A stretch of DNA of 39,509 nucleotides, from positions 62,001 through 101,509 of the forward strand of contig MEDY01000058.1 in the NCBI GenBank assembly GCA_001724265.1, read 5' to 3'. The notes beneath the pieces were generated by a model. The model was not told the origin of the DNA. It did no database searches and worked only from the letters and a program-made list of their open reading frames with translations. Of this stretch, positions 4,770 through 33,600 are shown piece by piece. The first letter of the stretch is position 1. Each line of letters begins with the position of its first letter. Origin of the DNA: Rhizaria sp. SCN 62-66. Its lineage: Eukaryota. Both the position numbers and the translations under genes were made by a program.

Positions 4770-5155
4770 CAGGCTGTGGATTACGCCTCGACGCTTTCTC
4801 TTGGTGGAGCTTTGGAACGCGCTCAACGCCCGGTCCGACGTCGGCGTGCTCCGCGACAGCGGCATCGTGCCTCTGCTGCTGCAGTCGCTCGTGATGACCG
4901 GCGACTCCGAGGCTGACGCCGCAGAGTGCGTTAAGCTCATCATCATGATGCTCGACAAAGACGGCCAGGGCCGCAGACTGCGCTGCGCTGCTCGCGGAGT
5001 GCGGCGTTGTGGAGAAGCTCACTGCTCTGCTGCCACAACACTTCCTCGAGGCGCGAGACGTTAACACCATCGGCTCGCTTCTCCAAGTCGTCGCCACCGT
5101 CGCCGGCACGTCTGTTCTCCCCTCGCCCGCAAGGCGCGCGAGCCTGCTAATTTAC
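4770..5155 (+). pseudogene. Truncated, frameshifted paralog of the N-terminus of the ARM-like/cyclophilin-like genes
   Basis: LVELWNALNARSDVGVLRDSGIVPLLLQSLVMTG matches LVELKRALSCYCRIDILRESGVIPLLLQSLLLTG of 5694..8165. After a frame change near 4968, ALLAECGVVEKLTALLP...LLQVVATVAGTSVLPSPARRASL matches GLLNECGTVEKLTSFLP...LLKLVSAVASQSVLTASVRHAAL. Similarity then stops. Boundaries are approximate. Confidence 0.8.
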
Positions 5156-5693: not shown

Positions 5694-8165
5694 ATGCTCC
5701 CGCCACAGCTCTCTACGATACAGATTGGAGCGATCCCCCGCATACACGCTGCTTTGGGTTGTGTCGCAGCTCTAGCAACAGATCTCCCCGCTTTGGTTGA
5801 GCTTAAGCGTGCACTCTCTTGTTACTGCCGCATTGACATCTTGCGTGAAAGTGGGGTCATTCCACTGCTTCTACAGTCGCTCCTGCTGACCGGGAACATT
5901 GATGACAACGACAGACTTACGAAGCGATTCAACATCATTTGCCAGATACTAAAACAGATTACTCACTGGGGAGACGGCCTTGGCTTGCTTAATGAGTGCG
6001 GTACGGTTGAAAAACTTACATCTTTCTTGCCACACCTCTCTTCAAGGGTCATGGTGATTAAGCTTCTCAAGTTAGTATCTGCAGTTGCCAGTCAATCCGT
6101 CCTCACAGCGTCCGTCAGGCACGCTGCGTTGGCGCATCTCTCATCGCTCATGCACGGGTTCTTCAAACAGCAGGATGGCGAACGTACCCGCCTGGCAAAT
6201 CCTGCCGCTACCCGATTCTACATCACTCTGAACAACGCGATCATCGTGCTTGAGTCCAGTGCCATCATTCGCACTGCCATAGTGCCTCGGCTTTCTTACG
6301 CTTCCGTGTATGAGTTCGTTTCGTTGTTGCGCTGTATTATTCGACAGCATCCATATTCTGACCCTGAGAGTCGCAAAATTCGTGCTTCCGTTTACTCCAC
6401 ACTATATCGTATTTTTCAGAGCGACAATAACGACATGGACGATGTGCGACGCTATGGTGACCTTGCGGCCTTTGTGACCAGCAATGACCTTGATTCATTG
6501 ATCCATATCTCGGACATTGACTCTACTACAATGCTGCTGGGTTTTTTGCAGATGCTCGATGACACGACGTTTGCATGCTGCTTGACGACCAGTCGCATCG
6601 AACTTTTTCTCGCCCGTATTGACCTACGCGACTCCTACAGTATGCCCAAACTAAACTCTCGCATGCACTTACTTGCTACGCTGATTGTTCGATTCCCCCA
6701 ATTCGCCGAACGTCTCTCTGGTTTGGTGGGATCTATGCCTTTTTTTGAGTGCATTGGCGAGATCATCCGCGAGCGCTGGCAGAACTTGAAGGAAAACCTG
6801 CTGCTGCCTAGTAACACGATGATGGTTCTGAACAGTATGTTGCACGTTTCCCAAGATGTTTTTTGCGCAACATGGCAACTGTTTGCCAAGGGTGCTGTGA
6901 AGACTTGTTGCGCTCTTCTGAGGTGTTTTGTGGTGTCAGATTGCAGGAAAGAGGACACGTTGCGAGATGCATGGTTAAGTCCAGGACTCATCGTACAGAT
7001 TCTTCACGTTTTGTGCATGATAGCTGACACCCAAAACCCGAAACTATTGGGCGCTTTAGAGGGTGACAACGGCGCCGCATTGCCGAACTACTTTGTCGAT
7101 GAGTTTATTGCCTGCCGCGGGCCAGAAGCACTTGAATTGCTGCGCTACGATGCTTGCATGCAAGAGAGAGATGTTGATCCAGTTCGTAGTAAGCTGACGC
7201 AGCTGCACACCCTACTTGTGGACATGGCCGTGATTGCGCCAGAAGCTGCTGTGACAGGGAGTGCGCGCATGCAAACTCTTGCGGAGATGCGCACTTTCAC
7301 GCTGGAGCACAACTGGAAAACTGCGTTTGACTTGCACATTGCATGCATCTTGCAAGAGAGCGGATATCCCCGAGGCATTATACGCATGGTTTTCGTTCGT
7401 TCTCTGCACCACTCTCTGCACATGCCTGTACGGTGCAACGGGGCGCCGTCACCGGCTGCGCTGTTGATGTTGCAAGCCAAGGCGCGCGAGCGCATTCTTA
7501 TGATGGCTAAGCATGCCACAGATGTCACAATTTCAGCACGACTTTGCAACCCCCACTTGCAGCAGCATAACGAACTGTACCGCATGGTAATCCAGCTTAA
7601 CGATGAAAAGTTTCCAAGCAACGCTGCGCATTTTCGCATTGCAGCTGAAAAATCAGTTCTGGGTGAAACGCTGCACAAATGTTTTGTGCCTCCTGGAGAT
7701 TGCACAACAGCATCGTTACCATTTGTTTCGCTGTATCACAATCAGACGAAGCTTTCTTGCGCTACTGCGCCTCTGACGCTTCCAGAGAGTGACGTTGTCT
7801 ACGGCGAGCACGTCATGGACGATACCGCGATTTACCCGGTTGGCACAGTGCTGATGTATGCCCGCGCCGTCGTTCCCGCCGACACTGTTCGCCTTATGTT
7901 TACGCACGACACGCCGTGGTTTATCGTCTTCAAGCCATGTCCAGCGAGCATGCTGCGCGGCGCAGTGCCCGTCGGCCGCGTGACGCTGTGCGCACGAAGC
8001 CCAGTGAAGCGTACACAGAGTGGTGACGGTGTGGTCGAAGACATTCTATTTGATGCTAAGTTGCTGCAGATTTTTGAGGAACACTGTCGAGGCGAGCGTT
8101 GTATTGACGCTCACACAATCAACTTGCTTCTCGAGGATTGGCAGGAGAAACGGGAAAGAGACTGA
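5694..8165 (+). CDS. ARM/importin-alpha-like helical repeat protein with C-terminal degenerate cyclophilin-like domain (paralog A, 823 aa)
   Basis: Intact ORF ending TGA, collinear with 8824..11391. ARM-like motifs: LRESGVIPLLLQSL, ECGTVEKLTSFL, KGAVKTCCALL, NYFVDEFIACRGPEALELL. Domain calls are by eye. Confidence 0.75.
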   Translation: MLPPQLSTIQIGAIPRIHAALGCVAALATDLPALVELKRALSCYCRIDILRESGVIPLLLQSLLLTGNIDDNDRLTKRFNIICQILKQITHWGDGLGLLNECGTVEKLTSFLPHLSSRVMVIKLLKLVSAVASQSVLTASVRHAALAHLSSLMHGFFKQQDGERTRLANPAATRFYITLNNAIIVLESSAIIRTAIVPRLSYASVYEFVSLLRCIIRQHPYSDPESRKIRASVYSTLYRIFQSDNNDMDDVRRYGDLAAFVTSNDLDSLIHISDIDSTTMLLGFLQMLDDTTFACCLTTSRIELFLARIDLRDSYSMPKLNSRMHLLATLIVRFPQFAERLSGLVGSMPFFECIGEIIRERWQNLKENLLLPSNTMMVLNSMLHVSQDVFCATWQLFAKGAVKTCCALLRCFVVSDCRKEDTLRDAWLSPGLIVQILHVLCMIADTQNPKLLGALEGDNGAALPNYFVDEFIACRGPEALELLRYDACMQERDVDPVRSKLTQLHTLLVDMAVIAPEAAVTGSARMQTLAEMRTFTLEHNWKTAFDLHIACILQESGYPRGIIRMVFVRSLHHSLHMPVRCNGAPSPAALLMLQAKARERILMMAKHATDVTISARLCNPHLQQHNELYRMVIQLNDEKFPSNAAHFRIAAEKSVLGETLHKCFVPPGDCTTASLPFVSLYHNQTKLSCATAPLTLPESDVVYGEHVMDDTAIYPVGTVLMYARAVVPADTVRLMFTHDTPWFIVFKPCPASMLRGAVPVGRVTLCARSPVKRTQSGDGVVEDILFDAKLLQIFEEHCRGERCIDAHTINLLLEDWQEKRERD

Positions 8166-8823: not shown

Positions 8824-11391
8824 ATGAATTTCTCTGGTTTATACCAGAGCACTCACACACATGAGGAAAAGATGCAACGTATCCATGCCGCACTGGCTCC
8901 ACTAATCGCACTTTCGACGAATCTTGACCACCTCCGCATATTCCGGGATATCGTGATGTAGAACGCCTTTAACGTCGCTCCGCTGGCCGAGGCCAACGTT
9001 GTGAGCGTGCTTTCGGGATTGCTTGGTCTTTCGGGTGATCAGGATTCTGCTCAGCGGTGCGATCTCGTTGTTGAGATGTTCGATCGAATCACGGGCGGCC
9101 AGTTCCGCGTCGAGGCTGGGTGCGCCATGCTTGCTGGGAGCGACGCAGTCGGGAAGCTGAGCAGCTACCTTCTTACAGGTCAAGATGACAAGCTTGCGCT
9201 TCGTATTCTCAGCCTTGTGAAGTCGATCGCTGCGTCTCCAGCGCTCGGTGCTCCCGCCAGGCACAGTGCGCTGACCACTTTGCTAGATTACTCATATCAG
9301 CTGCAACAACCTCAGCAGAGCAAGCAACAAGCGCAGTCGGTTGCCGTGAATGACAACGAACAGCAACCGTGGTCGATGCAACTGGGCGTTTCCCGAGTCC
9401 CACTTGCAATGCAGTGCCAAATGAAGCTTTACGAAGTCGTCGCCGAGCTCTGTATGCAGTGCACCCCGCCGGTGCCGTACGCCGTCGTCTCAGGATTCGT
9501 GCCCGTGCTGCTCGCTGCGCTTGAGCGACACGCGGGCGGCACGCAGGATATCGATGATGGCATTTGCTATGCAGCGTACGGCGCTTTGTGCGGCGTGTTC
9601 ACGCCCGGCAGCGAGGCTGACGTCGCCGACTTCGCGCTGAGCGCCGCCTTCGACCCCTTGTTGCGGAGCCTGGTGGGTCACAAGACCTTGGCGTTGCTGC
9701 TGCACTGTGTATCTGTGCTCGACGCCGCCGCGCTCCGGCGCGTCCTTACCGCGGAGCGCCAGGAGGTCTTGTGCGCGGTACTTAGCGCCAGCCGCCACAC
9801 ATGGACGCAGTGGACGATGAAGCCGCTGACGGAGCTGGTCTCGCGCGTCGCGGCCAGCGTTCCTGCTTTTGCGCAACTGTTTATCGACGGACCCGGCCTG
9901 GCGTTGCTGTTTAGTACAATTGTCTCGAGCTACCGCGCGTTCCAACCGTCCGACGGCGCAAGTCTGCCACGGCACTGCGCCTCTCTGCTCTCCAGTCTGC
10001 TGTCAGCGGCCGCGGCGTGCGAGGATGAGCCGCGCGCGGTGCAGCGCATGCTCGACAGCGGCGCCGTGCTCTGCTGCTGCGCGCTCCTCAAGTCGGCTGC
10101 GATGTGGAGCGGTGGCGCCGACAACCCGCCGGACAACGCACCGAGCGCAGACGCGGTGGGGCAGCTGCTGCGTGCATTGTGGGCGTTGATTGGTGTGAAC
10201 ACACGCGCACGTGCATGCTCCGTTTTACCCGCTGGTGTTGCACAAAATGACGGCACACTAGCCCCTCCGTCGCAACCACGGAGTCCCTCTGCTTTAGACA
10301 GCTTTCGCATGTGCCGCGGGCCACATACGCTTGAGATGCTGTGCTACGCCGACTGCATGACCCAGGCCGACAGCGGGCCCGCGCTACGCGAGCTCGGACG
10401 GCTCGGCGCGCTGCTCTAGGCCCAGTCCGTGCTCACGCCCGCCGCCGCGGCGGACAGCGCGGAGGGAATCGCGCTGCGCCGGCAGGCGGTCGTAGACGCG
10501 AATGCGTTCGCGCAGTCGAGCGTGGGCGGCTGGACTGACGCGTTCGACGACTACATCGCATGCGCATTGGAAGAGAGCGGCTATCCGCGCAAGCTTTTCT
10601 ACAACATGGTATCATCCCTGTACGAGCCGTTTGTGTCCGCTCCTGTGCGGGCGAGCGGCGCGCCGTCCGCGGCGGCGCTGTCGCTCCTCCAGGTCCGGGC
10701 GCGCGAACGTGTTTTTGCCAGCTTGCAGGGGCAGTTTGGCGCGAAGCAGCCGGGGGATGTGGTGATGGCGTCCCAGCTGCTCAACGCGCAGACGGGGCAA
10801 CGCGACGAGTATCGCATGGTGATTCGCTTGAATGATGGTCAGTTTCCCAGTCACGCGGCGCACTTCCGCGTTGCGACGCAGGTACGCGCGCTTGGCACGC
10901 ATCTGCACCGCTGCTTTGTTCCCCCGGGCGAGACTGCTGCGTCATTGCCTTTCGTGACGCTCTACAACGGCAGGCCCGAGGCCGCGTGCGCAGCTTGTCC
11001 GCTCGCGCTGCCGGAGAGCGACATTGTCTACGGCGAGTACACTGCGCCCGGCGCCGATGTGATCTACCCCGCTGGAACGGTGCTATTTTACCCTCGCACG
11101 TTCGTGCCCATGTTGGTTCGTGGCGCTCCGCCGTGTGACACGCCTGTGTTCTTCGTGTTTAAGCCGTGCAGTGCGGCGCTGCTGCGCGGGGCCGTCCCCG
11201 TGGGCCGTGTGCTGTCGTGCGTGCCAGGTACGCAGCCCACGGCACACGACGACGGTGCGCCGTTTACCGATAGCAATGCACAGCCCTACGACGCTGCGGT
11301 GCTGCAGTGCTTCGAGGCGCTGTGCAAGGGCGATAAGTGCGCGAGTCACCACATCGATGTCGTCTCAGTCAATGCGTTTGTTTCATTGTGA
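8824..11391 (+). CDS. ARM-like + degenerate cyclophilin-like protein (paralog B, ~855 aa) containing two in-frame TAG codons (8959-8961, 10417-10419)
   Basis: One frame from ATG 8824 (or 8872) through the track ORFs 9001..10419 and 10429..11391. RIHAAL upstream of the first TAG and ESGYPR / HFR / CFVPPG / LPESD.VYGE / VFKPC...LRGAVPVGRV downstream of the second all match paralog A. Ends TGA. Confidence 0.8.
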
Positions 11392-12067: not shown

Positions 12068-12442
12068 ATGCTCCGCTCCCTCCGCGTTGTCTCCGCCCTC
12101 ACCAAGGTGCGCGCTGTGCCTGCCGCCTTCCCTGTCGTCTCGGTGTCTTCCCGCAAGTTCTCCGACGACTCGCGCAACTTTTTCCACGACTACGCCGCCA
12201 TTACCCGCCGCGTGACGACCGTTGTGGAGAACTTTGACCGCATCGACGCGGCCAACAAGGCCAAGATCGCCCCCGCCGCCAAGTTCAACGCCGACCTTGG
12301 CCTCGACTCGCTCGACTCCGTGGAGCTCGTGCTCGCTATGGAGGACGAGTTCGGCCTCGAGATCTCTGACGCCGACTCGGACAAGTTCACCAGCATCGAG
12401 GACGTCGCCAAGTTCATCGCTGGCAACCCCTCCGCCAAGTAA
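12068..12442 (+). CDS. ACP1: Mitochondrial acyl carrier protein (NDUFAB1/ACP1 type)
   Basis: Phosphopantetheine site DLGLDSLDSVELVLAMEDEFGLEI; R/S-rich presequence lacking acidic residues; ends TAA. Confidence 0.95.
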   Translation: MLRSLRVVSALTKVRAVPAAFPVVSVSSRKFSDDSRNFFHDYAAITRRVTTVVENFDRIDAANKAKIAPAAKFNADLGLDSLDSVELVLAMEDEFGLEISDADSDKFTSIEDVAKFIAGNPSAK

Positions 12443-13358: not shown

Positions 13359-13664
13359 TCACCGGCCCTGGCGCGCGAGCTCGCCGCGGAGCCCCTCGAT
13401 CTGAGCCTCGTAGAGCTTGAGCTGGCGCACCAGCTCGGCGTTCTTCTCCTCGCAGTAGTTGAAGTCGGCCAGCGGGCGCGGAGACGGCGTCGTGGAGACG
13501 GCGAAGGTGCAAGCGTAGATGGTGAAGGCGAAAATCAGACCGAAGAGCACGATGAGACGCCGCGTGAAGGTATTGGCGCCTTCCATGGGGTCTGAACAAC
13601 TGCCACCAACGCCGCTGCTGCCGCCGTGGGAGTGGCCGTGACCGCCGTGCGCGCCGCGACCCAT
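13359..13664 (-). CDS. Small single-pass membrane protein with C-terminal coiled coil (unknown function, 101 aa)
   Basis: GC-rich island in an AT-richer spacer; ATG start; TM LIVLFGLIFAFTIYACTFAV; heptad-like ELVRQLKLYEAQIEGLRGELARQ; ends TGA. Confidence 0.65.
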   Translation of the reverse strand: MGRGAHGGHGHSHGGSSGVGGSCSDPMEGANTFTRRLIVLFGLIFAFTIYACTFAVSTTPSPRPLADFNYCEEKNAELVRQLKLYEAQIEGLRGELARQGR

Positions 13665-14073
13665 GAAGCGATGCTGGGGTGAAAAGAGGTTGTGTGAGAG
13701 AAAGTCGTAGAACGAGCGAGCTTTTGAGTTAAGAAACTGGGTTTCAGCGAAGTCCCATGAAGAATAATTTTAGGTAGGTAATATATATCGAGTTTTTAAT
13801 CACGATACCCACTGCCAATTCCTATACAACGACAAATCCAAGTGCGAACATCGGTTTCTTCCGTGCTGTTCACGAGTGTGGGTGACTCCACCAGACCGCG
13901 TGGCGACGGAACGGCTATGGCGGTGCAGAACTCGGGTCAAAGCCGCAGATTTAGCGGGTAACAAACATCAGTGAGAGCCAAACTGAGATATTATATACAA
14001 TCATATGTATTATTTCCTAGTGTAACATAATATTATTAACAAGACAAAAAGACGACGAGCGCCGAGAGCTAAC

Positions 14074-15681
14074 TTACTCGAACTTGCGGTTCTTAAGCTG
14101 CTTCTCGATGCGCTCCTCGTCCAGATCGACCTGCTTGGCCTGCGCGAACTGCTCCACGGCGGACTTGACAAACATGCCAATCATGAGCAGCACAAACCAG
14201 CCCCAGGTCCACTTGAGCCAGCCCTCCTGCTCGGCCTCGGCTGCCGTCGCCGCTGCGTTGACACCGAACTTGGTGACAGTGCTGGCGATGCCCGCGCGCA
14301 CCTTGTCGGCCACCACGGGCGCGATGCGGTCCGTGAAGCTCAGAAGCATCTCGCGGTGCGGCGTGGAAAACATCAGGATGAAGAACGCGGCCTGACCGTT
14401 GACCTTGATCAGCGCCTTGCCGACCAGCGTGCCCAGGAAGAAGGTCCAGAAGGGCATCAGGAAGTGGCCGCAACACATGCCGCAGAGATCGAACAGTGCA
14501 TTAGGATACGCCGAGAAAGCAAGCACGCCCCAGAAGCCGTAGGACTTGATGAACTTGATCATCCAGACCTTCATGGCGTCCACGGCCGTCTTGGGCGGCG
14601 CGTCGAGATCGATCTCCTCAAACTCGTCGTTACGCTGCCCAGCCTCGCGCGCTGCGCGCGAGATCCAGTACGGGGGGATCTCGCCCACGGCCGTGCCGGC
14701 GCCCCAGAGCAGGCACGGGATAAGGACCTTAAGGAAGATGGCCGCGAAGGACGCCGCGGTGCCCGCGGGGGCGGGAGCGGAGCACACAAAGGCCGGGGCG
14801 GTGTCACGGAACCACATGTCAGCCAGGGAATCGAACGAGACGTTGCCGCACTCGTTGGCGGCCAGACACACGCGCATGATGTGGGGGAAGAGGAACAACA
14901 CGCCGGAGTGCATGCCGGTGCCGAAGCCGATGGATGAGAGGACGCCGAGGCCGATCCACCACACCGCGACCTCGACCGCCTTCTCCAGCAGTGCGCAGTA
15001 GACCTGTGGAGAGGGATAACAAATATACAGGTTTAGGACGAAGGATGAAGCATATAGTGAGTGAAAAGTCGATAAATTCATACAAAAACATATCATTACA
15101 TCTTTTAATTGAACAATACTTTAATTGATGCGTCTAAGGCAGAGATATATGCTGTTTAGTCTATGTGAGTGTGAGTATGATATTGTGCATCACCCAGCTG
15201 CTGAGATACGTACCTGGTGGGGGCCGGCGACCATGGATCCGAAGGCCCAGAGGGCGAAGACGGGCAGCACAAAGAACTTGGTGACGGGGTGCGAGGACAG
15301 GAAGACGAGCAGCGCGGCGCCCTGCTCGGCGATGACCATGCTGATGTTGCGCAGGGTGACGAGGGGGGAGTGGAAGAGGGTGATCTCCTCGCGCGCCGCC
15401 TTCAGGCTCGCGAGATACTCGACGGGGACGGAGGCCGTGGCGGCGTCCGTGCGCACACGGTTGCCGAAGGCGTCGGTGGTGTAGAGCCCCGACGCGCGGT
15501 CCGCCAGCGTGCGGTCGTACACGGCCCAGTTGGAGAGGTTCTTGCAGCCGCGCGCGACGAAGAGGAAGACGAGCACGGCCGCCAGCACCGCCGCGCCCAG
15601 CACGACGGGCTCAAAGCGGGAGCCAGCGCCCACAGCCGCGGGAGCGAGGGACAGCACGAGCTGCTTGAAGTGAGCAAGCAT
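14074..15681 (-). CDS. VMP1: Vacuole membrane protein 1 (VMP1/TMEM49, DedA/VTT-domain), 2 exons: 15681-15214, 15003-14074; ~465 aa
   Basis: WWIGLGVLSSIGFGTGMHSGVLFLFPHI, WGAGTAVGEIPPYWISRAA, PNALFDLCGMCCGHFLMPFWTFFLGTLVGKA; ends TAA. Confidence 0.93.
15004..15213 (-). other. Spliceosomal intron, phase 0 (VMP1)
   Basis: CAG|gtacgt ... ccctctccacag|GTC; AT-rich; joins GPHQ to VYCALLEK. Confidence 0.88.
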
Positions 15682-18935: not shown

Positions 18936-20993
18936 TCACCATTGCAGCTGCTCACTGTCATCCGCGTCGTACACGGGCGCCGGCAGCGGGTCGTTCAAGA
19001 AGAACCCGTTGTCGCTGATATAGCGCAGACACTGCAACACCTTGCTGTACTCCTTGGTGACGTCGTCCGCGAAAAGCTTCCGCAGCAGCGACACGCTCGG
19101 CGGCGGCAGCTCCCTTTCCCCCGCGCCGCCCCGGCCGCCGCGCCCGCCGCCGCGCCCGCCGCGGACACCGGCGCCGCCGCGGCCGCCGCGCGCGGCGCCG
19201 CCGTTGCCGGTGGCGGCTGCGACCGCGGCAAGCTGCTGCTGCGTGTCGCGCAGCGAGTCCCAGGTGAGCGCGCGGGGTGCGCCCGTGGTCTCCTCGAAGC
19301 CGGCGGCCCCCAGCAGCAGCCGCTCGGGCGCCGCCGAGGCCGAGGCCGCGGACCAGGGGTTCAGGCGGGATAGTGATAACAGGCGCGGCACAGCGGCGTT
19401 GGCCGCGGCCATGGCGGCAGACGCGGGTGATGCCGATGTCGGGGCTGGGGCTGAGGCTGATGCGGAAGTTGAGGTTGAAGTTGAGGGCTCGCTTGCAGAA
19501 GTCTCGGTCACAGCTGCAGCCGCGGGGGTTGATACGTCGTTGTTTGAGAGAGCGTTCGTGTCCAATGCTGAGACTGCTAAGAGGGCAGCTGTGGCATCTG
19601 CCGCAGTCTCTGTCTGAGGCTGGCCAGTCTCGCTGGTGTTGACAGAGGTGTCTGCAGAATGACCTGCCTTGTCAGCGTCATCACCGGTCATCGCTGTGGC
19701 GAGACCAACTGCGGTGAGGTTGCCAGCATCGGCACTGCTCGGCGTCGCTGTGGCGTCGTCACTGCTGGTCACAATCTCATCGCCATTGCCTGCACTGGTC
19801 ACATCAGCAGCACCTGCAGCGGAAGCAGCGTCGCCCTTGTTGTTGCCGTCACGAGAAACCTTCGTAGGCTGAGCCTGAGCTTGTGATTGAACAGACTGCG
19901 ACTGCGCCTGTGGGACCAGCGGCGCGATGCGTGGCGGCGGCGGCGGGCCGCGCAGAGGCAGCTCCACCGGTCCCCTGTCGTCGTCGCTGTCGCTGGGGCT
20001 ATCGTCACCGTAGCACGACAGGCCCAGCAGCACTCTGCCGGCCTTGCTGCAAGAGTCCGAGCCCAAGCCCGCAGCACCAGAGCCTGAGCCTGAGCCGGGC
20101 TGTGGCGGCCTAGGCTGCCCCTCGCTGTCGTTGCTGTCGGTGCAGCTGCTCTGCGTCGCGGCATCGGCACTGATGACCGTGGGCCGCGGACGGCGGGGGT
20201 ACTTAGCCCTGCGCTCGGCCATCCACGCGCTAAGGGCCTCGGGGCTGCCGTCCGCGGGCAGGCGCGAGAGCAGGTCTGCAGGCACGTCGGGCGCGGGGAA
20301 AAACGGCGGCGGCCGGCGGCTGGCGTTCACTGAACTGTTATGAACAGGAGCGTTTGCACTTGCGCTTGCGCTTGGGCTCGATGAGCTAGAGCTAGAGCTA
20401 GCGCCGCAGCTGGAGCTAGGTGCTGCGACAACTGGCGTCGAAACTACAGTCGTGGTGGGGGCACTGTTGTCGTCGTCAGGGGGAAAGCGCACGTGGCGAG
20501 CAGAATCGCCGTTGTTGCTGTTGTTGCAGCTTTTGTTGTTCTTGTTACGCTGCTGCTGCTGCTGATGCTGTTTGCCATACTTCGAGTTACCATTCGCGCT
20601 ACTCTTGTCCGTACCTGGAGACAATGCCACTGTCGATGCCAAAGCATTGCTGCTCGCATTAGCGCCACTGTTGCTGTTGCTGTTGCCGTTGCTACTGCTG
20701 TTGGCCGAGTTTGTGCGTGCAAAGAACGTCGTCGAGGTCAGGAAAGACGGCGCGGGACGCATAGGGCCGCACGCGACGGCCGCGGCAACGGGGCCAGACA
20801 CGGGCCCGCTGGCCACCGCGGCAACACCGCCGGCCGCGGGGGTCGGGGAGTGCGCACGCTAGTGCGACTGCGAATGCGTCTGCGATTGTGTTTGTGAGGT
20901 GGTGGGTTTCTGGCCGAAAGAAGAGGGCTGAGATGGGGCAGCACCAAGGAATGGCGCTGCAGCAGCGTTCATAACTGCGGCCCAGTCCGTCAT
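18936..20993 (-). CDS. NUFIP1/Rsa1-like box C/D snoRNP assembly factor (~685 aa) with one in-frame TAG (20859-20861)
   Basis: SPEALSAWMAERRAKYP resembles the NUFIP1/Rsa1 PEP motif, and the C-terminal SLLRKLFADDVTKEYSKVLQCLRYISDNGFF resembles the NUFIP1 C-terminus. ATG 20993 (MTDWAAV...) is in frame with track ORF 18936..20816 across one TAG. Ends TGA. Confidence 0.72.
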
Positions 20994-21255
20994 TTTAAGA
21001 CTGTTTGGCGATATGCAAATATTTGACGACGTGGGAGTTAGAAAGAAGTAAGGAACGATTGAGAGTGAGCTAGAGGCGGAGAGCGTGACGGAGTTGACCG
21101 AGAACGAGACGATGATTCCCTTCTGAAAGATAACAATAACAGCTACAAAGTTCAAACGCAACATGTCTGTATATTCTAGTCTTGTTATGCACAATAACGG
21201 ACTATAGAGAGCACATCAGATGTGTTGATTGGCAACGGGTGGGACCTGATTCGGC

Positions 21256-23963: not shown

Positions 23964-26900
23964 TTACTGCGTCGCTGCCATGTGTGCGATGGGAGAGTAG
24001 TGCGCGTGTTTGCCGACCAACAGCGAGGATGGAATCGCGCGCAGCGCGGGCCTTTTTGTCGTCTCTTCGTCATCATTCTGTCTATTCCCGTTCGCGCCTC
24101 TACCATTGTTATTGTTCGCGTTGTTGATGAGATTGAGGTTGTTGTTGGCCTCTGCAATGTGCTGCGAAAAGGACCACTGCTGCTGCGGCTGCTGCTGCTC
24201 CGGCCACGCTTGATACAGCGCCCGGCTCCGCGACGCGTGCAGCGCGCTCGCGCTCGCAGCAGGCCCCGCGCCGTCCTGGCTGTAACCTTGGTTCAGGTTC
24301 AGGGGCTCGCTCGGCGGGTTTTGGTTCGGGCCGGGCACGACGCTGATGCTGCGGGACACCGACGGCGACCGCGGCGTCAGCGGCGACGCCTGAGACTGCG
24401 GAGGCTGTCCACCGCTGCTGCCGCCGCTGCCTCCGCTGTTGTTGCTGTTGCTACGCGCCATCGCGCCCGCGCCGGTGATCGCGCCCGTGGCGGCAGCGAT
24501 CGTGATGGGCACCGCCAGCTGCATCGTCGGATACGGCGCCTGCCCGCCCCCGTTGCCGTAGCCCGGGCTGCCGCCGCCGAACGCGGGGCTCGGCTGGAAG
24601 CGCGGGCTGAACTGCGTCTGCGGCTGCGCTGCCTGCGCCGACACACGCGGCGTCGGAGGTTGCGACTGCGGCTGCTGCGGCGGCGGCTGCTCTTGCTGAT
24701 CAGGCTGAAACGAGGGCTGAGGCGGCGGATGCGAATGCGACGACGCCAACTTGCGCGGGCTCGACAGCGCTTGCGGCCGCGACGGCGACGGCGGCTGTGG
24801 CTGCAGCGGCGGCTGGGACTGGGGTTGCGGCCGCGCCGGGGACAGCGGCGGCTTCGGAGGCTGCGCTTGCGACTGCGCCGGTGGCTTGGGCTCAGGCTGC
24901 GAGTGCAGCTCCGGCTCAGGCTGCAGCTGCAACTGGAGCTGCAACTGCGGCTGCGGCTGCGGCTGCGGCTGCGGCGGCTGTACCTTCGTTGGCGAGGGCT
25001 GCGAGCGCGGCGACGCCTTGGGCGAGAGCGGGGCGGCCGCCGCCTTGGTGCCAAGACCCGGGCTCTGCCGCTGTTGCTGCGCCGCCGTCACGGCAGCGGA
25101 GCCGAGCCCCAGCTCGACTGCGGCCGCGGCGTCACTGTCGCTGATGTTGACCGTGACGATGTCGCTCAACGCAACGTCCCCCGCGGCGTCGGCGGCGGCC
25201 GCGGTGTCGACGGCGTCAAGCACCGATAGCGGCGCCGGCCTCGCGCGGTGGGGCCGCGCGCGCTTCTCCGAGCCCGACGGCGGCCGCGGCTTGCGCGAGC
25301 GGCCCGCGCTACCTTCGCGCCGCGCTGCGTGGCTGGGACTGGCACTGGGATTCGCGCTCGCACCCGCGGCCACGGCTGCAGCGGCCTCGCTCGGGGGCAA
25401 GCTGTCGTGGGGACTGAGCGGGTTGAAGCTGGGCCCGTAGATCCTGCGCTGGTTAGCGATGTGGTTGGCCCACACGGCGCGCTTGTACGCCTCGTCGTCG
25501 TTGGCGTTCCACAACGCGGGGTTGATGCCCGACGCCAGCAGCGTCGCCGCGTCCATGTACAGCGGTCCGTCCTCCAGCGCGGCGTCGCTCGGCGACAATG
25601 GGCCCGCCAATGTGCTGCCCCAGCCGCCGTCCGTGGCGCCACTCTCGCCGCCGGCGCCGCTGCCGTCGCCCAACCGGCGGTTACGCCCGCCCTGCGACGC
25701 CGCGATGGCGGCCGCGGCCGCGGCGGCCGCCGCGGCGGACTGCGGCGCCGGCCCGCCCTTGCCGCCGCCAGAGAAGAGCCCCGGCGGCGGCCTGTCGGGG
25801 TCGTAGTGGGCGAGCGAGCGCGTGCTGGCGGGCACGCTGGTGCTGCTGTGCGCGAGGTTCTGTCCCGCGAGGAGCCCCGCCGTGCTGCCGCTCGCGGCCA
25901 GGCCGCCATTGGCTACGGGGCTCGGCGGCACCGCGGGCGCGGCGCGGTTACGCGGGGAGCCTGGCGCGGCGCCAGCAGCGCCGCCGACGCTGGCGTTGGA
26001 GCTGGAGCGGACCGCGGCGGCGGAGGGTCGGAGCGCGCCACCGCCGCCGCCCGCCGCGACGCCAACGCCGATGGCGTTGAGGACGGCGGCGTCGGCCACA
26101 AACTCGCCGTCGCCCTCGCCGCCCGCGCCGCCGCGGCCGCCCGAGGAGTTGGCGGCGGGCTCGGCGGAGAAGGAGCAGCAGCGCGCACAGAAGCGGCGAC
26201 AGGGCCCCGTGAAGAAGAAGTAAATAACCGCACCGATAATCGCGAGCGCAATGATGATGCAGATAGCGAGCACGACGTACGACATCGGGGGCTGGAGCCC
26301 GAAGAGACTGTTGCCGCCGCTGCTGACGCCGTCGGCGTAGACGCAGATGCCGGAGTAGCACTGGCCCAACCCGGGCTTGGGACCGTTGCCCGAGTACGCG
26401 GCCGAGGAGCCCGAGGTGGTGGTGGGGGAGCCGCACGGCATGCCCTGCGGTGTGGCCACTATGGTGCCGTTGGACACGGGCGCGCGGCACTGGGTGATGT
26501 CGTCGAGCAGCGCCGACGTCAACGAAGTGCACAACACTTGCTCGCACTGGCTCGTTGAGTCCTGCAGCGGGCAGCGGCGCAGACCGCCCAGTGCGCACGT
26601 GGCGTCGAGCGACAGGCAGTCGCCGTGGTAGCAGCGACCTGAGTTGTCGGGGAAGTCGTCGGGCGCGGTCGCCACTGCCAGCGGCGTGCAGACCTTGCCG
26701 GCGCTGGCGTACGCGTCCGGCGGGCACGCGCCGGAGGTGCCGCTGCACATCTCGGCCTGCGCAGAGCGCACGACAAAAAGTATCAATAATCATCACGTTT
26801 CATCAGAGACAATTAGGTGAGATAGAAACAAGCAATGAACGAACTCATAATCGAAGATTAACCCAGGGATGAATGAGTTCTCAAAAATGAAAAGTACAAT

Positions 26901-29900
26901 ACACGCGTTGTGATCAAGTAATGCACTATGTTCGACGTACGGTGTCGCAAAGCGGGTGCGCAGCCGCGCGGCAGACGAGTTTGTCGCTGGCGGGCACGTA
27001 CGAGCACTGGTCGCAGCAGGGCTCCGCGTTCGAGCACTGGCTGCCCGTGGTCAGCATGCACAGTTCCGGTACGCAGCATGGATCAGCGGCGCAGGCCTCC
27101 GAGCCCGCGGCGCCGCAGTCGCACTGCTCGCCAGCCTCGGTGATGCCGTTGCCGCACACGACCTCGGACCAGGACTCGGTGGGGATGTTGGCCAGACAGG
27201 TCGCAACGCCGTTCGGGTCCGTCTCAAACCAAGAACGCAAAAACTCTTTCGAACACTAAAATGAAGAAGAAAAAAAAAAGTATACAATGAGGAACTACAA
27301 CTTAAGATACAAGACCAGTAGGATCTCGAACTGGGGCGATAGTGCGCGCCATTGTTAATGAATATAATCTGACGGACCTGTGAGAACTCGGTGTAGGCCG
27401 ATGTCGAAGATGCGTAGGTGGACATGATCTTGCCCCCAGCAGGGCATGTAATGTTATTGTGGTCAACAGTAATCATATACGCGGGAGTACCGTCGTGCGG
27501 CATGCCGAACGTGTGGCCCAGCTCATGCGCCACGACCATGCCGAGCATCGATTCGCCGAAAACGGCAGGAATCGCCTAGTGTACGAATGTTGTGAAAAAG
27601 AATCGTGAATAAATAAAATTTAATGAAGAGAAAATCAGGCATGTGTCGTGCGAATGATGCAAAACGATTGATGTTCATAAGTTTGGTGACATCATTAAGT
27701 TGACACTTCAAAGTTGAAAACTACTCACAGCATGTTATGCGTGTGTTCGGCGTACCTGAGCAATGGCGCCGGAGTAGGCGTCGGTGCACATATCATCCAG
27801 CTGCGCGAGCCCAACGACCTGATCCTGGAAGTACTGCCCCGACAGCATCACGCGCGAATCACACGGCTTGTCCGTCATGGACGACGGGTTGGAATAAACA
27901 AGGAACTTCTGCAGAAACTCCAGCGAGCCGATTTCTGAGCGCTTGCGCGTGTTGGAGTACACGGGTGCGACATACAATAAGGCCGGGAGATCCAGCATCA
28001 CGGTCTGTCCGACGAGCACGACGCGGATCGCCGGCGCGAGCTCGTTGCTCTCGTAGAGCCCGTCGACGATGTTGGCCACGCGCGCGCCGGACCGCGCGAC
28101 GAGCGTGGCGTTGCCACTAAACAAGGCGAGCCGCGCGGGATCGTGGTACATGTGCAGTTCCACGTACTGCTGCGCCGTGGGCACGGCCAGAGGGGACCAG
28201 GGGTACCGCCGGAGGTGCGACGTCGCAGTGGGAATCCCGGGGGGTGAGCGTCGGGCAGGCTGGACACGTGCGCGCGGCTGGTAGTGGCTGTGGCGGGACG
28301 CAGCGGTCGCGGCAGCAGCAGCAGCACTGGCACTGTTGCCGTTACGCGTGTTAGCAAGCGTGCTGAAGCCAGAAGAGCGGGCAGACGCGGCGTCAAGAGT
28401 GGCAGTAATGTCGGCAGTAATGTCGGTAGCATCATCGCTGTGGCTGTGGTCGTGCCCCCGAGCGTGACCGCACCAGTGCACGTCGGCTTCATTATCGTCT
28501 GCTGCATCGTCATCGTCGCTAACACCTGAGACAGATCCAGAGTCAGCACCCGTCCGCGCGCTGACAAGACCTTCGCTGCGGTCTTTGCTCTTGCTCTTTT
28601 TGTCCCGGTGGGCGTTTATAAGGGCGCGCAGTTCGTTGTCCTGCTCCGCCAGGCGCTGCAGCACGTACGAATCAGCGCCAACCGCACGCGGCGGCAGCAG
28701 TGTGCCAGCGCGCGCGCCCGCGACGGCGGCCGCGTCGAACGGCCGCGGGTCACTGCTGCTGGGGCCGTGATTGGTGCTGGTGCTTCGAGTGCCCATCGAC
28801 ATAGATGAGGAGCCCGAGCCGGAGTTGGAATTGATAATCATGTCGGTGTCGGTAAACAAGAGGCGGCGCCACATATTGTTGTTCATGTTTGCCTGGATCT
28901 TGTTGTAGCTGGAGCTAGGACTGGACCTAGCTTCAGAGTCAATGTGGTCCGAAGCATCAGTGCCCGGCGCAAGGTTCGGCAGCTCTTCACTAACGCTGGC
29001 ACCCGCCGAGTCGGAAACTCGCACAGCAGGCGCGACGTCGTACAGCTCCCCGTCGATCTTGACCACGCCGGAGAGCGCGCCGCCGCAGACCGATACGGCG
29101 GCGAAGCCGTGCGCAACGTAAAACGCGGCGGCATCGGGCTTAGTCGTGGACGCACTAGCGGCGCCAGTGTCGCGGTCGGCCAAGTCAGTGCCTTCGCTGT
29201 CAAACGCGACGACGTCGGCGTCATCGCCACTGGTGTCGCCCGTATTGCTGTTGATCGGCTCTAGCACGCGGCCGCGGTAGTGGCAATTCTCGCCCGGCTG
29301 CAGGGCGTAGGCGCGCTCAGTCCTCCCGTGCGCGTCAGCAGGACTCGTGTTGTCGCTGCCGCCCGCGGTGCTGTGTGTGTCCAGAGGAGACTACTTGTGC
29401 AAAGCGTACGTAGGAGCAAAGAGCACGTCATTACGCTGTAGCTGCAGCAAAAACGTGCGCTATTGGGTTGTCGCGGCGTTGACATCCGTGGTGTTGCTTG
29501 CCGTCGGGATATTCAGAGTGATTGTGATCGCAACGTCAGCCTTGCCATGAACGCCCTCCTCGCCGTCTTCACCAATGACATCCTCAATGCCGTCAGTGTC
29601 GGAGTTCGGGACCGAGGCAGTGCGGGCAGCGTGGCCGCGGCGGAAAAACTGCGCCCAACGCCGCTCCGAGGTGCGGCGGCGCAAAGCCAACGCATCAGTC
29701 GCTGTGCCGGCGCCAGAGGCAGTAGAACCCGAGGTTGAGGCAGAGATGGAGGCAGCACTCGCTGTGGTTGCGAATGGCGAGGTGGCAGCAGCATCGGCGT
29801 TGCCTGAAGCGGAACGACGCACGCGAGGTACAAACTGCACGGAGAGCGTTGCAGGATTAATGCCGATAGGCAGTGGAGTGGTTGCAGCGAATGTAACAGC

Positions 29901-30017
29901 TGGTGCGAATGCACAGATGGTGGCTGCAAGTAGAATTAGCGACCAAGCAAGCAGATTCCGAGGGGGACCCGCGCCGCCGAGCAACGGGCTCGATGGCGCC
30001 CTTTGGGCTGCAGACAT
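23964..30017 (-). CDS. ADAM-family (M12B reprolysin) membrane metalloprotease, 4 exons: 30017-27756, 27575-27378, 27255-26941, 26756-23964; ~1855 aa; two in-frame TAGs (29460-29462, 29391-29393)
   Basis: Signal peptide; prodomain motifs FLLQLQRNDVLFAP, NCHYRGRV, AAVSVCGGALSGVV; cysteine-switch-like HWCGH; zinc motif HELGHTFGMPHD; Met-turn KIMS; FSQCS; disintegrin CGNGITEAGEQCDCG...CDTAEMCSGTSGACPPD; Cys-rich region; TM YVVLAICIIIALAIIGAVIYFFF; long P/Q-rich tail; ends TAA. Confidence 0.9.
26757..26940 (-). other. Spliceosomal intron 3 of ADAM, phase 0
   Basis: ACC|gtacgt ... gcgcag|GCC restores CDT-AEMC. Confidence 0.9.
27256..27377 (-). other. Spliceosomal intron 2 of ADAM, phase 0
   Basis: CAG|gtccgt ... 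ttttag|TGT restores EFSQ-CSKEF. Confidence 0.9.
27576..27755 (-). other. Spliceosomal intron 1 of ADAM, phase 0
   Basis: CAG|gtacgc ... cactag|GCG joins SGAIAQ to AIPAVFGESMLGMVVAHELGH. Confidence 0.85.
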
Positions 30018-30699: not shown

Positions 30700-33600
30700 T
30701 TACACAACCACAGACCTGAAATGTGCGTAATTTGTCTCGCTCACAGCACGGTGACGGATGGCATTGCTGTCTGGTTCTGCCCTTTCAATAAGGGCAGGGG
30801 CAGTCATAGCTGCGACTGGTGTCACTGTTCCGCGTTGCCGCCGCATCTCGTGGCTGTTGATACTGGATTTGTTAAGGTCTCCGCTGACGAAGCTCTCGGT
30901 GACAAACGCTGTCTCCAGCGGCAGCGGTACCATTGGCACGGAGAGGTCAGTGTCTGTCGGGACAGCGCTAATAAGACTCCCATCCGTGCGTGTGCGCCTT
31001 GGCGTAAGCAAATCGCTCCTACCGTCCTGGTTACTGTCAGAGGCATTACGCGTGTGTCTCTCATCAATAGCATGAGCAGAGCTCCCGCCGATGTTGATAC
31101 GCCTTGGTTTGTCAGAGCGACGCTCTGAAGTCGCAGCATCTAACCCCGCACTTGCCCCTGCGCTGTTAATGCCGTGTATCTCTGCAGCGTTTGTGGCAGG
31201 TAGTGTCGGCGTTGTTACTGTAACGCAGTGGGCCATGCCGCGGCCCCGCGCGATGACGCGGTTGCGGCTCCAGTGCCCCGCTGAAATCAAGACGCCGGCG
31301 CCAGCGTCAGCTTCAGCACAAGTTTGCCCAGCAGCTGCATTCACGCGGACTGAGCTGCCGCTGTCTGCAAGAAGGCCTGTGGTTGTATGTAATGAGGTGA
31401 CTGTGATTGCATCAGGCATGGTGCACCCAATACTGCTGCCGCCCCAACCTTGCTTTGTTAATTGTTGCTGCCACGCCTCTACAGCAGCAAGGGCGCCTGC
31501 TCCAGTTGGTTTAGTCCTTTCGGTGCGAGCGCTGGTCACCTCAGTGTCGTGGCTAAGTCGATTCAGTCGGTCCCCGCGCACAGGTAAAGGGCTCGACTCA
31601 ATCGGTGTTAGTTCACAGACGACACGCAGAAACAGCTCGCCCGGCGGTCCGCGCCAGCTTGTGGCGACAGCCCACTCCTGTGCCGTCATTGCGTGACTGC
31701 GACTAGTATGCATATGACCACGTGTGCTCATGGTTACATCACGATCAAATAAGCAATGGTCGGCTGTTGATAGAGGTTCAGCCGAGTCTGTGATTGCCGC
31801 GATGATAAAATTGGGATCGGGATGACCATTTGCGCCACTGTTGTGGGGATGACTATTGCGTGCATTTGTGTGAGCAAGAGCACGACGCCGATGACTGCCA
31901 GTTCGTGGTTGCTTCCTTGAGACAGTCGCGACAACATTCAACATCGGTGACATATGCACTATCGTGGCAGCATTGTTGCCACGAGTTCCACTCGCAACAC
32001 GGCTGTTGACATTACAATTGACATCGCCAATGTCTCTCGTTGACATGTGTTTTTGCCAGTATGCTGTGTTGGAATCACGCTGTAACACCCAATTACTGAC
32101 ATTGCGATGGTCGCTTGTTGTGGCGTCACTGTCTGTGTTACGACTATCACGATCGTCGAGATAAGAAATTACATTATCACGCTGCTAACTCAGCGTGTGC
32201 GTCCAAGCCCGCCATTTCACCCAGCGACGGCCGAGTCCAGCGCTCGCACCAACGTTACTGTGGCGGGATACACGGGAAGTACTCTCTCGGCTGCTCCGGC
32301 CAAAGTGTTCGTGGTTGCCAGAACATACGCTATCACCATTGGTTGGCGGAGTACCAGAGATCTCCCAAGGCGGGACGTCACTAACACTGCGACAAACAGC
32401 GTGGTATAAAACACCGCCATACATGAACACTCGCCGATTGCGATTTCGGTCATGGGTACCACTTTTATCAACACTTTTGACGTATTCGGCAATACTTGCA
32501 TTCAATGTGCTATTACTGCTGCCGGCAGATGCAAATAGTGGTGGCAATGCTGTTGACATGGTATCGCCTGGCTGTAGCAGCATCGCACCAGGCAGCGATG
32601 TAACAGTGAGCGAAAATCGCTTTAGGCCAGTGACTGTGTGAGGAAGCTCTGTAACGATAGGCGCTGGTGTAGCAACTGCGGGCATCGATGGGGGAACCAG
32701 TGGCACTGATATCACCGTGGGCTCTGATGTCGCTGTTGAGCTGGCTGTAATTATCGGGGTGACTGTGAGCAGTGAAGAGACATCGGTTGGTTCCCAGTTG
32801 CACCAACCGATAGTTCCACCGCTGTCAAATGCACCGCCGTCTTGACGATTGCAAACCGCGCTCGCTGTATCATTCTGACTGCAGCACCCAGTGGTGGCGT
32901 TAACGCAACTGTTTAGCGTAGCGGGAACGGTAGATTCTATACTTGAGCAACCCAAAAACGTGCCATCCTTAAGGCTGCTTGTTGTGTTAGCATCAGTTTT
33001 TGGAATTAATGTAGTTAGCGTTGTGCTTGTCCCTGTGTTAGTTCCATAAACAGCAGACTCAAGCGTTTGCGTCAGTACGCGCAGCGCCGCTCGCGGCCAG
33101 TGTTGCGCTAAGACATCGCTAACAGGCACACACCGGTACGCGCAGCCACAGGTATCCGCAAAACCCGAATTGTTACTCGAGACGCGTCCGCGGTGTGCGT
33201 GTGCTCGATCGTGTAATAGCTCGAAATCGGTGTCGTTTACAGCACCGCTCTCTGCGAGGTTCTTATTGGCGTCATCATCAAAGGGCTCTTGCTGCTTCTT
33301 CTCAAGAGCCTGAGCGGCGCTGAGTCGAAGCGCGTTGGCGCTTCCGGCCCATACGCGCAGGCGTTGAACGCGTGCGCGCTGTTCTTCTTGAGCTGCGCTA
33401 CCGATGACCCACCAGCCACCTTCACGACCAAAACTGCTGGAATTTGCCGTGCCACAGGAAGTTGTGTTAGAATAATTGCTAGCATCCCAATTACTGCTGT
33501 GGGTGACGTTGTCGGCGAAGTTTAAGTGGGTGCTGCTGCTAGAATTCGACGTAAGTTCTGTTTGAATAGGAAATAGAGTACACACTGGCGCGTTGCCGTT

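Follow-up and report, generated by a model that had tools for sequence, protein, structure and literature searches.

UAG as a probable sense codon in a tandem paralog gene with two in-frame TAGs in a contig of Rhizaria sp. SCN 62-66

The DNA analysed here (the window) was a stretch of 39.5 kb with 11 genes and 9,202 codons. The features under study are listed in Table 1. Translation of gene B with TAG as X showed two in-frame stops in all, each of them a TAG. The ORFs at 9001..10419 and 10429..11391 called with translation table 11 were both present and had a common frame. The claim of the preliminary description that these two ORFs are one gene was upheld, and the gene was found to extend 5' of the first TAG by another 45 codons and to be homologous over its full length to its tandem paralog, gene A. 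The frame of B had no TAA or TGA, while each of the other frames had 5-12 of them in the two long segments and 2-3 in the first segment of 45 codons. Based on the intergenic frequency of TAA and TGA together (0.035 per codon), the chance of finding neither was 3.5e-8 for the 485 codons after the first TAG and 1.1e-5 for the 323 codons after the second. The three segments of B split by the TAGs had a GC3 of 0.51, 0.71 and 0.77, respectively. The middle ORF of 472 aa was recorded in the protein collection on 4 contigs, which makes a one-off sequencing error at 10417 unlikely, although the contigs are possibly not independent.

Table 1. Position of gene B, its relatives and the other TAG-bearing genes in the window.
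Feature	Position	Strand	Description
Third family copy remnant	4801..5146	+	Found by tblastn of A; truncated and frameshifted
Gene A	5694..8165	+	Intact tandem paralog of B; 823 aa; without in-frame stop; TGA end
Gene B	8824..11391	+	855 codons; TGA end; N-terminal alpha-helical repeat region, then conserved C-terminal domain
B, first in-frame TAG	8959..8961	+	Codon 46
B, second in-frame TAG	10417..10419	+	Codon 532
B, conserved C-terminal domain	10501..11388	+	Residues 560-855; wholly 3' of both TAGs
Low-complexity protein gene	18936..21164	-	TAG 20859-20861; likely start ATG 20993, 44 codons 5' of TAG
ADAM-type metalloprotease gene	23964..30017	-	4 exons: 30017..27756, 27575..27378, 27255..26941, 26756..23964
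ADAM gene, in-frame TAGs	29460-29462, 29391-29393	-	Both in exon 1; codons 186 and 209
Lineage-specific 1729-codon frame	30700..35889	-	One TAG, 32185-32187
Lineage-specific surface-type protein	36121..38856	-	In-frame TAG 36403-36405, codon 818 of 911

The C-terminal domain of B was predicted by AlphaFold2 with a pLDDT of 91.5 and a pTM of 0.91 from an alignment of 52 sequences. In a family alignment of 18 sequences that included B, all 20 invariant columns were located within this domain. Foldseek produced many weak matches between the domain and cyclophilins (E 4e-4 to 3e-3, TM by query 0.23-0.34, identity 8-17%). No Pfam family matched A or B, and atlas searches returned sub-threshold leads alone, to ARM-type repeats with scores of at most 0.86.

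Comparison of A (823 aa) with B by BLASTP produced a single alignment from A 16-807 to B 19-843 with 32% identity and an E-value of 2e-93. This agreed with the earlier claim that the homology runs through both TAGs without a frameshift, and the two pairs of A and B peptides quoted for it were identical to the translations in every letter. The homology begins upstream of the first TAG with the motif RIHAAL (B 19-24). As had been claimed, A carries ordinary residues opposite the TAGs, S at the first and V at the second; however, this control by itself would look the same for a young pseudogene as for a translated TAG. The family column at the first TAG was variable (S 4, E 3, R 3, N 2, K 2). The second TAG stands in a residue column directly past the family motif L..L(R/H)xLL, and among the 76 aligned members this column held A in 13, E in 12, S in 8 and V in 7 while 22 were gapped there. 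Serine was among the commoner residues of the two columns, which is not evidence for UAG=Ser.

Synonymous sites between A and B were saturated (pS 0.69-0.82, dS about 2 or undefined) and dN/dS was therefore unusable. The relaxed constraint downstream of the TAGs that the preliminary description had associated with a young pseudogene was not seen, as the pN/pS after the second TAG was the lowest at 0.52, compared to 0.62 and 0.68 upstream. An exhaustive profile search with the family found 126 proteins, A included. Over alignments of at least 100 residues, none of them exceeded 51% identity to B, the single higher identity (88.6%) was to a fragment of 37 aa, and the nearest full-length member was 40% identical. 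Among 8,000 word-sharing candidates, a homolog search with B returned just the window's own 472-aa ORF and a search with the 18-sequence family alignment returned just A; as both were confined to these candidates, they are silent on the absence of homologs.

A third copy of the family was found upstream of A with tblastn. Residues 34-68 of A matched 4801..4905 in frame 1 with 54% identity, and residues 93-146 matched 4973..5146 in frame 2 with 45% identity (E 1.6e-12). No match of A was found at this remnant past these parts. Judged from its sequence, the remnant is a genuine pseudogene, its truncation and frameshift having no counterpart in B.

Two further in-frame TAGs were found in a gene for an ADAM-type metalloprotease. 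The introns of this gene read as GT..AG. They are AT-rich and 122-184 nt long, unlike the flanks of the TAGs in B. A TAA at 27735 falls inside a GT..AG intron of 180 nt and is thus not in-frame. The protein had a Reprolysin domain (E 2e-7 to 8e-8) with the HExxHxxGxxHD zinc site present as the HELGHTFGMPHD motif, and a Disintegrin domain above the cut-off (E 3.9e-11). A hydrophobic N-terminus lies upstream of both TAGs, and a weak Pep_M12B_propep match of 17-21 bits, below the cut-off of 23.7, starts at the first TAG and continues across the second. From this domain order, the gene would need both TAGs to be read in order to retain its N-terminal hydrophobic signal and its propeptide, the latter being a sub-cut-off match. 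Substitution of the 20 residues at the TAG gave scores of just 16.9-20.7 bits against Pfam PF01562, and a PDB search with the propeptide region returned 0 matches.

Another three genes carried one TAG each. The lineage-specific surface-type protein showed two hydrophobic segments alone at a Kyte-Doolittle value of at least 1.6, one at the N-terminus and one in the stretch that begins right at the TAG. The 93 codons downstream of this TAG scored best in frame 0, and the TAG is probably, but not certainly, read through (probability of being open by chance 0.037). In the 1729-codon frame, 1234 and 494 open codons in one frame flank the TAG, and the 47 codons from the TAG to the next ATG were best in frame 0. 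The GC content there was only 0.45, so that two adjacent genes are still conceivable at this place. In the low-complexity protein gene, the stretch from codon 58 to the TAG scored +0.30 bits per codon in frame 0, and the TAG is ambiguous because a start downstream of it is also possible.

Overall, the frames of real genes in the window contained 7 in-frame TAGs, 0 TAA, 0 TGA and no frameshift in 9,202 codons. Reading TAG as X fused four genes besides B into longer frames. Homology or domain logic secured four of the seven TAGs (two in B and two in the ADAM gene) and the other three were probable or ambiguous. The 11 gene ends, a small sample, consisted of six TGA, five TAA and no TAG, although the TAGs at 32185 and 36403 could be gene ends if the extensions are spurious. 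Over the next 150 nt, the GC content fell to 0.37-0.49 past each true stop and was 0.45-0.74 past the in-frame TAGs. Codon log-likelihood was best in frame 0 for all nine segments flanking the TAGs (-0.17 to +0.60 bits per codon); in-frame flanks past true stops scored -0.23 to -1.18 bits per codon, with frame 0 best in just five of ten. None of the five confident genes whose GC3 was at least 0.82 had a TAG, while five of the six genes below this value did, and no conserved housekeeping gene in the window had one. The tRNA scan of the window identified one tRNA, Ser-AGA, and no tRNA with anticodon CUA was found within the 39.5 kb.

Two other readings were discarded. An intron covering the TAGs of B was ruled out by the GC-rich flanks (GC 0.67 and 0.71 for the two 150-nt stretches beside the second TAG) and by the residue column at the second TAG in the family alignment, and TAA or TGA as sense codons were judged unlikely as neither joined adjacent long frames in real genes and dense stops followed the TAA at two genes. 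The latter were the VTT and ankyrin genes, which end in TAA followed by dense mixed stops.

B is probably one intact and functional gene, in a nuclear code variant with UAG alone as a sense codon and UAA and UGA as stops. The decisive support for a sense reading lies outside the region treated in the preliminary description, namely in the TAG-only breaks of unrelated genes of the window together with the lack of any TAG terminator.

Young pseudogenes are an improbable alternative. B and likewise the ADAM gene would then carry recent nonsense mutations, with the downstream sequence not yet decayed. The remnant at 4801..5146 is proof that copies of the family decay here, the profile search yielded no ortholog close to B, and the divergence between A and B is too great to reveal recent relaxation. 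TAG is also the commonest product of random nonsense mutation here, at 54-57% given the codon composition, and the probability of TAG only was about 0.015-0.02 for all seven sites and about 0.09 (0.55 to the fourth power) for the four secure sites. However, this explanation demands that at least two unrelated genes of the 11 were each hit by exactly two TAGs alone, and the mixed lesions expected of pseudogenes were not found, with no frameshift, TAA or TGA in the gene frames. It also leaves unexplained why none of the 11 genes terminates with TAG and why a hydrophobic segment follows right after the TAG of 36121..38856. In addition, the region of B after the second TAG was better conserved, being nearer than intact A to 38 of the 47 distant family outgroups, and its C-terminal domain was predicted to fold with high confidence (pLDDT 91.5).

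An ambiguous UAG, read both as stop and as sense, is likewise given little likelihood. In-frame TAGs are sparse at approximately 0.08% of codons (7 in about 9,200) and limited to genes of lower GC3, ciliates and Blastocrithidia provide documented cases of ambiguous stop/sense codes (PMC11687900; PMC12153298), and the TAGs at 32185 and 36403 could in principle end shorter products. However, the codons after the seven TAGs (AAC, GCC, CGT, CGC, TCT, CAG and GCG) showed no common context, a TAG at codon 46 of 855 makes a useful short isoform impossible, and clear termination by TAG was found in no gene of the window.

It is equally improbable that the code is standard and that the in-frame UAGs are repaired in the mRNA by A-to-I editing from UAG to UGG (Trp), as in filamentous ascomycetes. 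Such editing would yield TAG-only breaks in less conserved genes. It is described as favouring U at position -1 and hairpin loops and as often hitting UAG and UAA stops (PMC11156358), and 71 edited 'pseudogenes' are reported for Fusarium graminearum (PMC10776026). Five of the seven TAGs lay in hairpin loops, of which two were neat, with stems of 7 bp (32185) and 5 bp (20859). However, off-frame TAGs of the same genes were no different in their hairpin share (52 of 107), with a mean unpaired probability of 0.72 versus 0.71. The Fusarium genome has about 14,000 genes, of which 71 edited ones are well under 1%, whereas the share in the window is 2 to 5 of 11 genes. TAG should moreover stay a normal terminator under editing, which does not agree with the gene ends of the window (0 of 11). 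Finally, the identity of the window's lipase to named homologs, fungal ones included, was just 36-41%, and this divergence argues that the source is not an ascomycete. For the lipase in general, one relative was found at 70% and one at 48%, and further matches were at most 41% (44-46% only over at most half of the query) to amoebozoan, diatom, chytrid and other proteins.

A sense reading of UAG has counterparts among known nuclear codes. Those with UAG alone reassigned include the rhizarian exLh (UAG=Leu) and Iotanema spirale (UAG=Gln) (Panek et al. 2017, PMC5304391). As described there, both have UAG only in frame and UAA and UGA as sole terminators, as in the window, and UAG is rarer in their highly expressed genes, which is counted here as a likeness. 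However, their reported UAG use is dense (384 UAGs over 71 genes and 204 over 126) compared to 7 in 11 genes here, the residue was inferred from hundreds of conserved sites compared to two sites with homologs and variable columns here, and the data were transcriptomes and not genomic DNA (PMC5304391). Phyllopharyngean ciliates (UAG=Leu or Gln) are similar to the window in having UAG as sense and UAA as stop, and a tRNA-Sup(CUA) is the mechanism proposed for them; they are reported to differ in having UAG in 78-91% of genes and UAA as the stop in 87-98%, while six TGA and five TAA were found here (McGowan et al. 2024, PMC11687900). Scotinosphaera (UAG=Ser, UAA stop) and Protocruzia tuzeti (UAG=Gln) are cited in the same source as further cases of UAG reassigned without UAA (PMC11687900). 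The UAR=Gln codes of Amoeboaphelidium protococcarum, hexamitin diplomonads and many ciliates share the sense reading of UAG (PMC5304391, PMC11687900). Unlike these, the window uses TAA as a stop and has no in-frame TAA (0 of 7, P about 0.16 given that CAA makes up 23% of Gln codons, a value at which a UAR code is still conceivable). The GC content given for aphelids, 40-52% (PMC10608142), does not match the 0.48-0.73 per 2 kb of the window, and that of Nuclearia does not fit either. The editing reported for Fusarium graminearum resembles the window in apparent pseudogenes with UAG-type breaks that still give full-length protein and differs in being RNA-level, stage-specific and limited to a small share of genes, with TAG kept as a normal terminator (PMC10776026, PMC11156358).

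With UAG as a sense codon, UAG would direct the ribosome to add an amino acid, and termination would be left to UAA and UGA. Decoding of UAG would rely on a tRNA with a CUA anticodon or on efficient near-cognate suppression, recognition of UAG by eRF1 may be weakened, and the change of code would presumably extend genome-wide. Both columns of B were variable and the spread of the propeptide substitutions was small, and these give no single residue for UAG. The rarity of TAG and its confinement to genes of lower GC3 fit a recently captured codon or one of lower translation efficiency. It is possible, if doubtful, that the source is an undescribed non-ciliate lineage early in a UAG-only reassignment, in which UAG is translated, purged from gene ends and very rare, being found in fast-evolving lineage-specific genes of lower GC3. 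The GC-rich exons and the 120-kb contig here are unlike ciliate macronuclear genomes. No description of a code matching the window was found in the literature, by which the absence of one is not proven.

If TAG is sense, the annotation of this genome under the standard code would be systematically wrong. Genes would be split, as B is into two ORFs with its N-terminus lost, intact genes would be miscalled as pseudogenes, and secreted or membrane proteins would be stripped of their signal peptide or anchor. It is rare for a nuclear code to reassign UAG and keep UAA as a stop, and such codes, recognised recently, demonstrate that decoding of the two codons is separable. Stop-codon capture could usefully be studied in a GC-rich genome that has introns and very sparse UAG. 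If the early-stage reading is true, such a genome would offer a natural snapshot of code change in transition between 'codon capture' and the 'ambiguous intermediate'.

ORF finding with translation table 11 produced two ORFs in one common frame (9001..10419 and 10429..11391) at the TAG-interrupted gene B. With TAG written as X, B was open over 855 codons, starting with the ATG at 8824 and closing with a TGA (11389-11391). BLASTP placed residues 16-807 of the tandem paralog A and 19-843 of B in a single alignment (32% identity, E 2e-93), in which S and V of A faced the first and second in-frame TAG of B (TAG1 and TAG2), respectively. This one-piece alignment confirmed the homology across both TAGs claimed in the preliminary description, whose peptides, lengths and coordinates for A and B all agreed with the translations.

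Features of the window discussed in the text
Feature	Position	Strand	Remarks
Third A/B-family copy, remnant	4801..5146	+	truncated to ~110 residues, frameshifted; between tRNA-Ser and A
Gene A	5694..8165	+	upstream neighbour of B; uninterrupted 823-aa paralog
TAG1 of B	8959-8961	+	codon 46; one of only two interruptions in frame
TAG2 of B	10417-10419	+	codon 532; one of only two interruptions in frame
Mitochondrial-type acyl carrier protein, small gene	12068..12442	+	PP-binding E 1.6e-10; ends in TAA
Open frame	13359..13769	-	GC3 0.77; His/Gly-rich stretch, then hydrophobic segment
ORF with hydrophobic stretch	15190..15681	-	GC3 0.88; just upstream of VTT-domain ORF (14074..15096), same strand
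Gene with one TAG	18936..21164	-	TAG at 20859-61
ADAM-type gene	23964..30017	-	TAGs at 29460-62, 29391-93
ADAM-type gene introns (3)	27755..27576; 27377..27256; 26940..26757	-	GT..AG, AT-rich; 180, 122, 184 nt
Gene with one TAG	30700..35889	-	TAG at 32185-87
Gene with one TAG	36121..38856	-	TAG at 36403-05

Confident coding sequence (9,202 codons) contained seven in-frame TAG, no TAA, no TGA and no frameshift. All 11 gene ends used TGA (6) or TAA (5) and none TAG. Random nonsense mutations in the GC3-rich window genes are expected to be TAG in 54-57% of cases, so the probability of a TAG-only set is approximately 0.015-0.02 for the seven sites and 0.09 for the four secure sites (two in B and two in the ADAM-type gene). 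The GC of the 150 nt 3' of true stops (gene ends at TGA or TAA) was 0.37-0.49 compared to 0.45-0.74 3' of in-frame TAGs. Codon log-likelihood trained on the window itself showed frame 0 as best in 9/9 TAG-flanking segments (-0.17 to +0.60) and in 5/10 in-frame flanks past true stops (-0.23 to -1.18). None of the five confident genes with a GC3 of ≥0.82 carried a TAG, compared to five of the six whose GC3 was lower.

Translation with TAG as X lengthened four genes besides B in the window. The ADAM-type gene is a strong case, independent of B: both TAGs are preceded by a hydrophobic N-terminus, a weak reprolysin-propeptide match runs from the first TAG across the second, and the catalytic HELGHTFGMPHD site and a disintegrin domain follow. 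This gene merges four separate track ORFs (propeptide, reprolysin, disintegrin and long C-terminal exon), and the length of its first intron, which carries in-frame TAA and TAG, is a multiple of 3. The only hydrophobic segments of the 36121..38856 gene are the N-terminus and one starting right at the TAG; reading of the TAG is required for its product to have a typical single-pass membrane layout. The cases in 18936..21164 and 30700..35889 were graded probable or ambiguous.

Synonymous sites of A and B showed a pS of 0.69-0.82, so dS was about 2 or undefined and dN/dS was unusable for this pair. With dS in that state, pN/pS was lowest after TAG2 (0.52 vs 0.62 and 0.68 elsewhere). The relative-rate comparison is more useful for judging decay of B: in the post-TAG2 region, 38 of the 47 family outgroups were closer to B than to intact A (mean identity 43.4% vs 40.4%). 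Post-TAG2 B also had a GC3 of 0.77 and no in-frame TAA/TGA, compared to five in each other frame. A young pseudogene is compatible with the pN/pS, relative-rate, GC3 and stop-absence tests alone, and young pseudogenes are considered unlikely. The locus is a tandem array of three A/B-family copies, one dead, as the remnant upstream of A indicates, and this relic shows the form that decay takes here. A dual-meaning UAG appears similarly improbable. Editing of UAG in mRNA is just as doubtful. The hairpin test was not significant; overall, in-frame TAGs were no more frequent in hairpins than off-frame TAGs. Neat hairpin loops with an in-frame TAG occur at 32170..32200 (-; 7-bp stem, 6-nt loop) and 20850..20870 (-; 5-bp stem, 4-nt loop). 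Finally, B as an old pseudogene is excluded by its outgroup closeness, GC3 and absence of in-frame TAA/TGA past TAG2.

Pfam gave no match for A or B. An A+B profile searched against 1.84 billion representative proteins produced 126 proteins including A itself (66 at E ≤1e-30), none with >51% identity to B over alignments of ≥100 residues. In the alignment of 76 members of ≥250 aa, TAG2 occupied an ordinary residue position (A 13, E 12, S 8, V 7; 22 gaps) immediately C-terminal to a conserved L..L(R/H)xLL motif, and TAG1 fell in a variable column (S 4, E 3, R 3). The best-conserved part of the family is wholly downstream of TAG2; when 18 sequences were aligned, each of the 20 invariant columns fell there. 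B residues 560-855 have a predicted fold (pLDDT 91.5, pTM 0.91) that is only weakly cyclophilin-like (TM by query ≤0.34; Foldseek E 4e-4 to 3e-3), and the N-terminal half resembles ARM/HEAT-type repeats by sub-threshold Atlas leads only. Overall, the A/B architecture is a predicted helical-repeat scaffold with a conserved beta-rich C-terminal domain.

The window is eukaryotic, and its genes include a patatin/DUF3336 lipase, Ras-type GTPase, ankyrin protein, VTT-domain protein and tRNA-Ser(AGA). Composition was strongly split: GC3 was 0.82-0.89 in the five confident TAG-free genes besides A and 0.45-0.77 in A and the TAG-bearing genes; the GC of intergenic regions, introns and 3' flanks was 0.36-0.53. 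The acyl carrier protein gene, with complex-I ACPs as closest PDB matches, has an in-frame TAG directly 5' of its ATG. Pfam gave no match for 15190..15681, which may be the first exon of the VTT-domain gene, or for 13359..13769, a possible exon of some unannotated gene. The ankyrin gene TAA (22834, +) is followed in frame by 96 stop-free codons; as their GC is only 0.45 and dense TAG/TAA comes after, this open frame looks like chance rather than readthrough.

UAG in the window is probably read as a sense codon, with UAA and UGA as terminators. The mechanism class of UAG reassignment is already known. The earliest demonstration of a UAG-as-sense code concerned a rhizarian and Iotanema (PMC5304391); several ciliates followed (PMC11687900, which also cites Scotinosphaera). 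Compared to those organisms as described there, UAG use in the window is far sparser.
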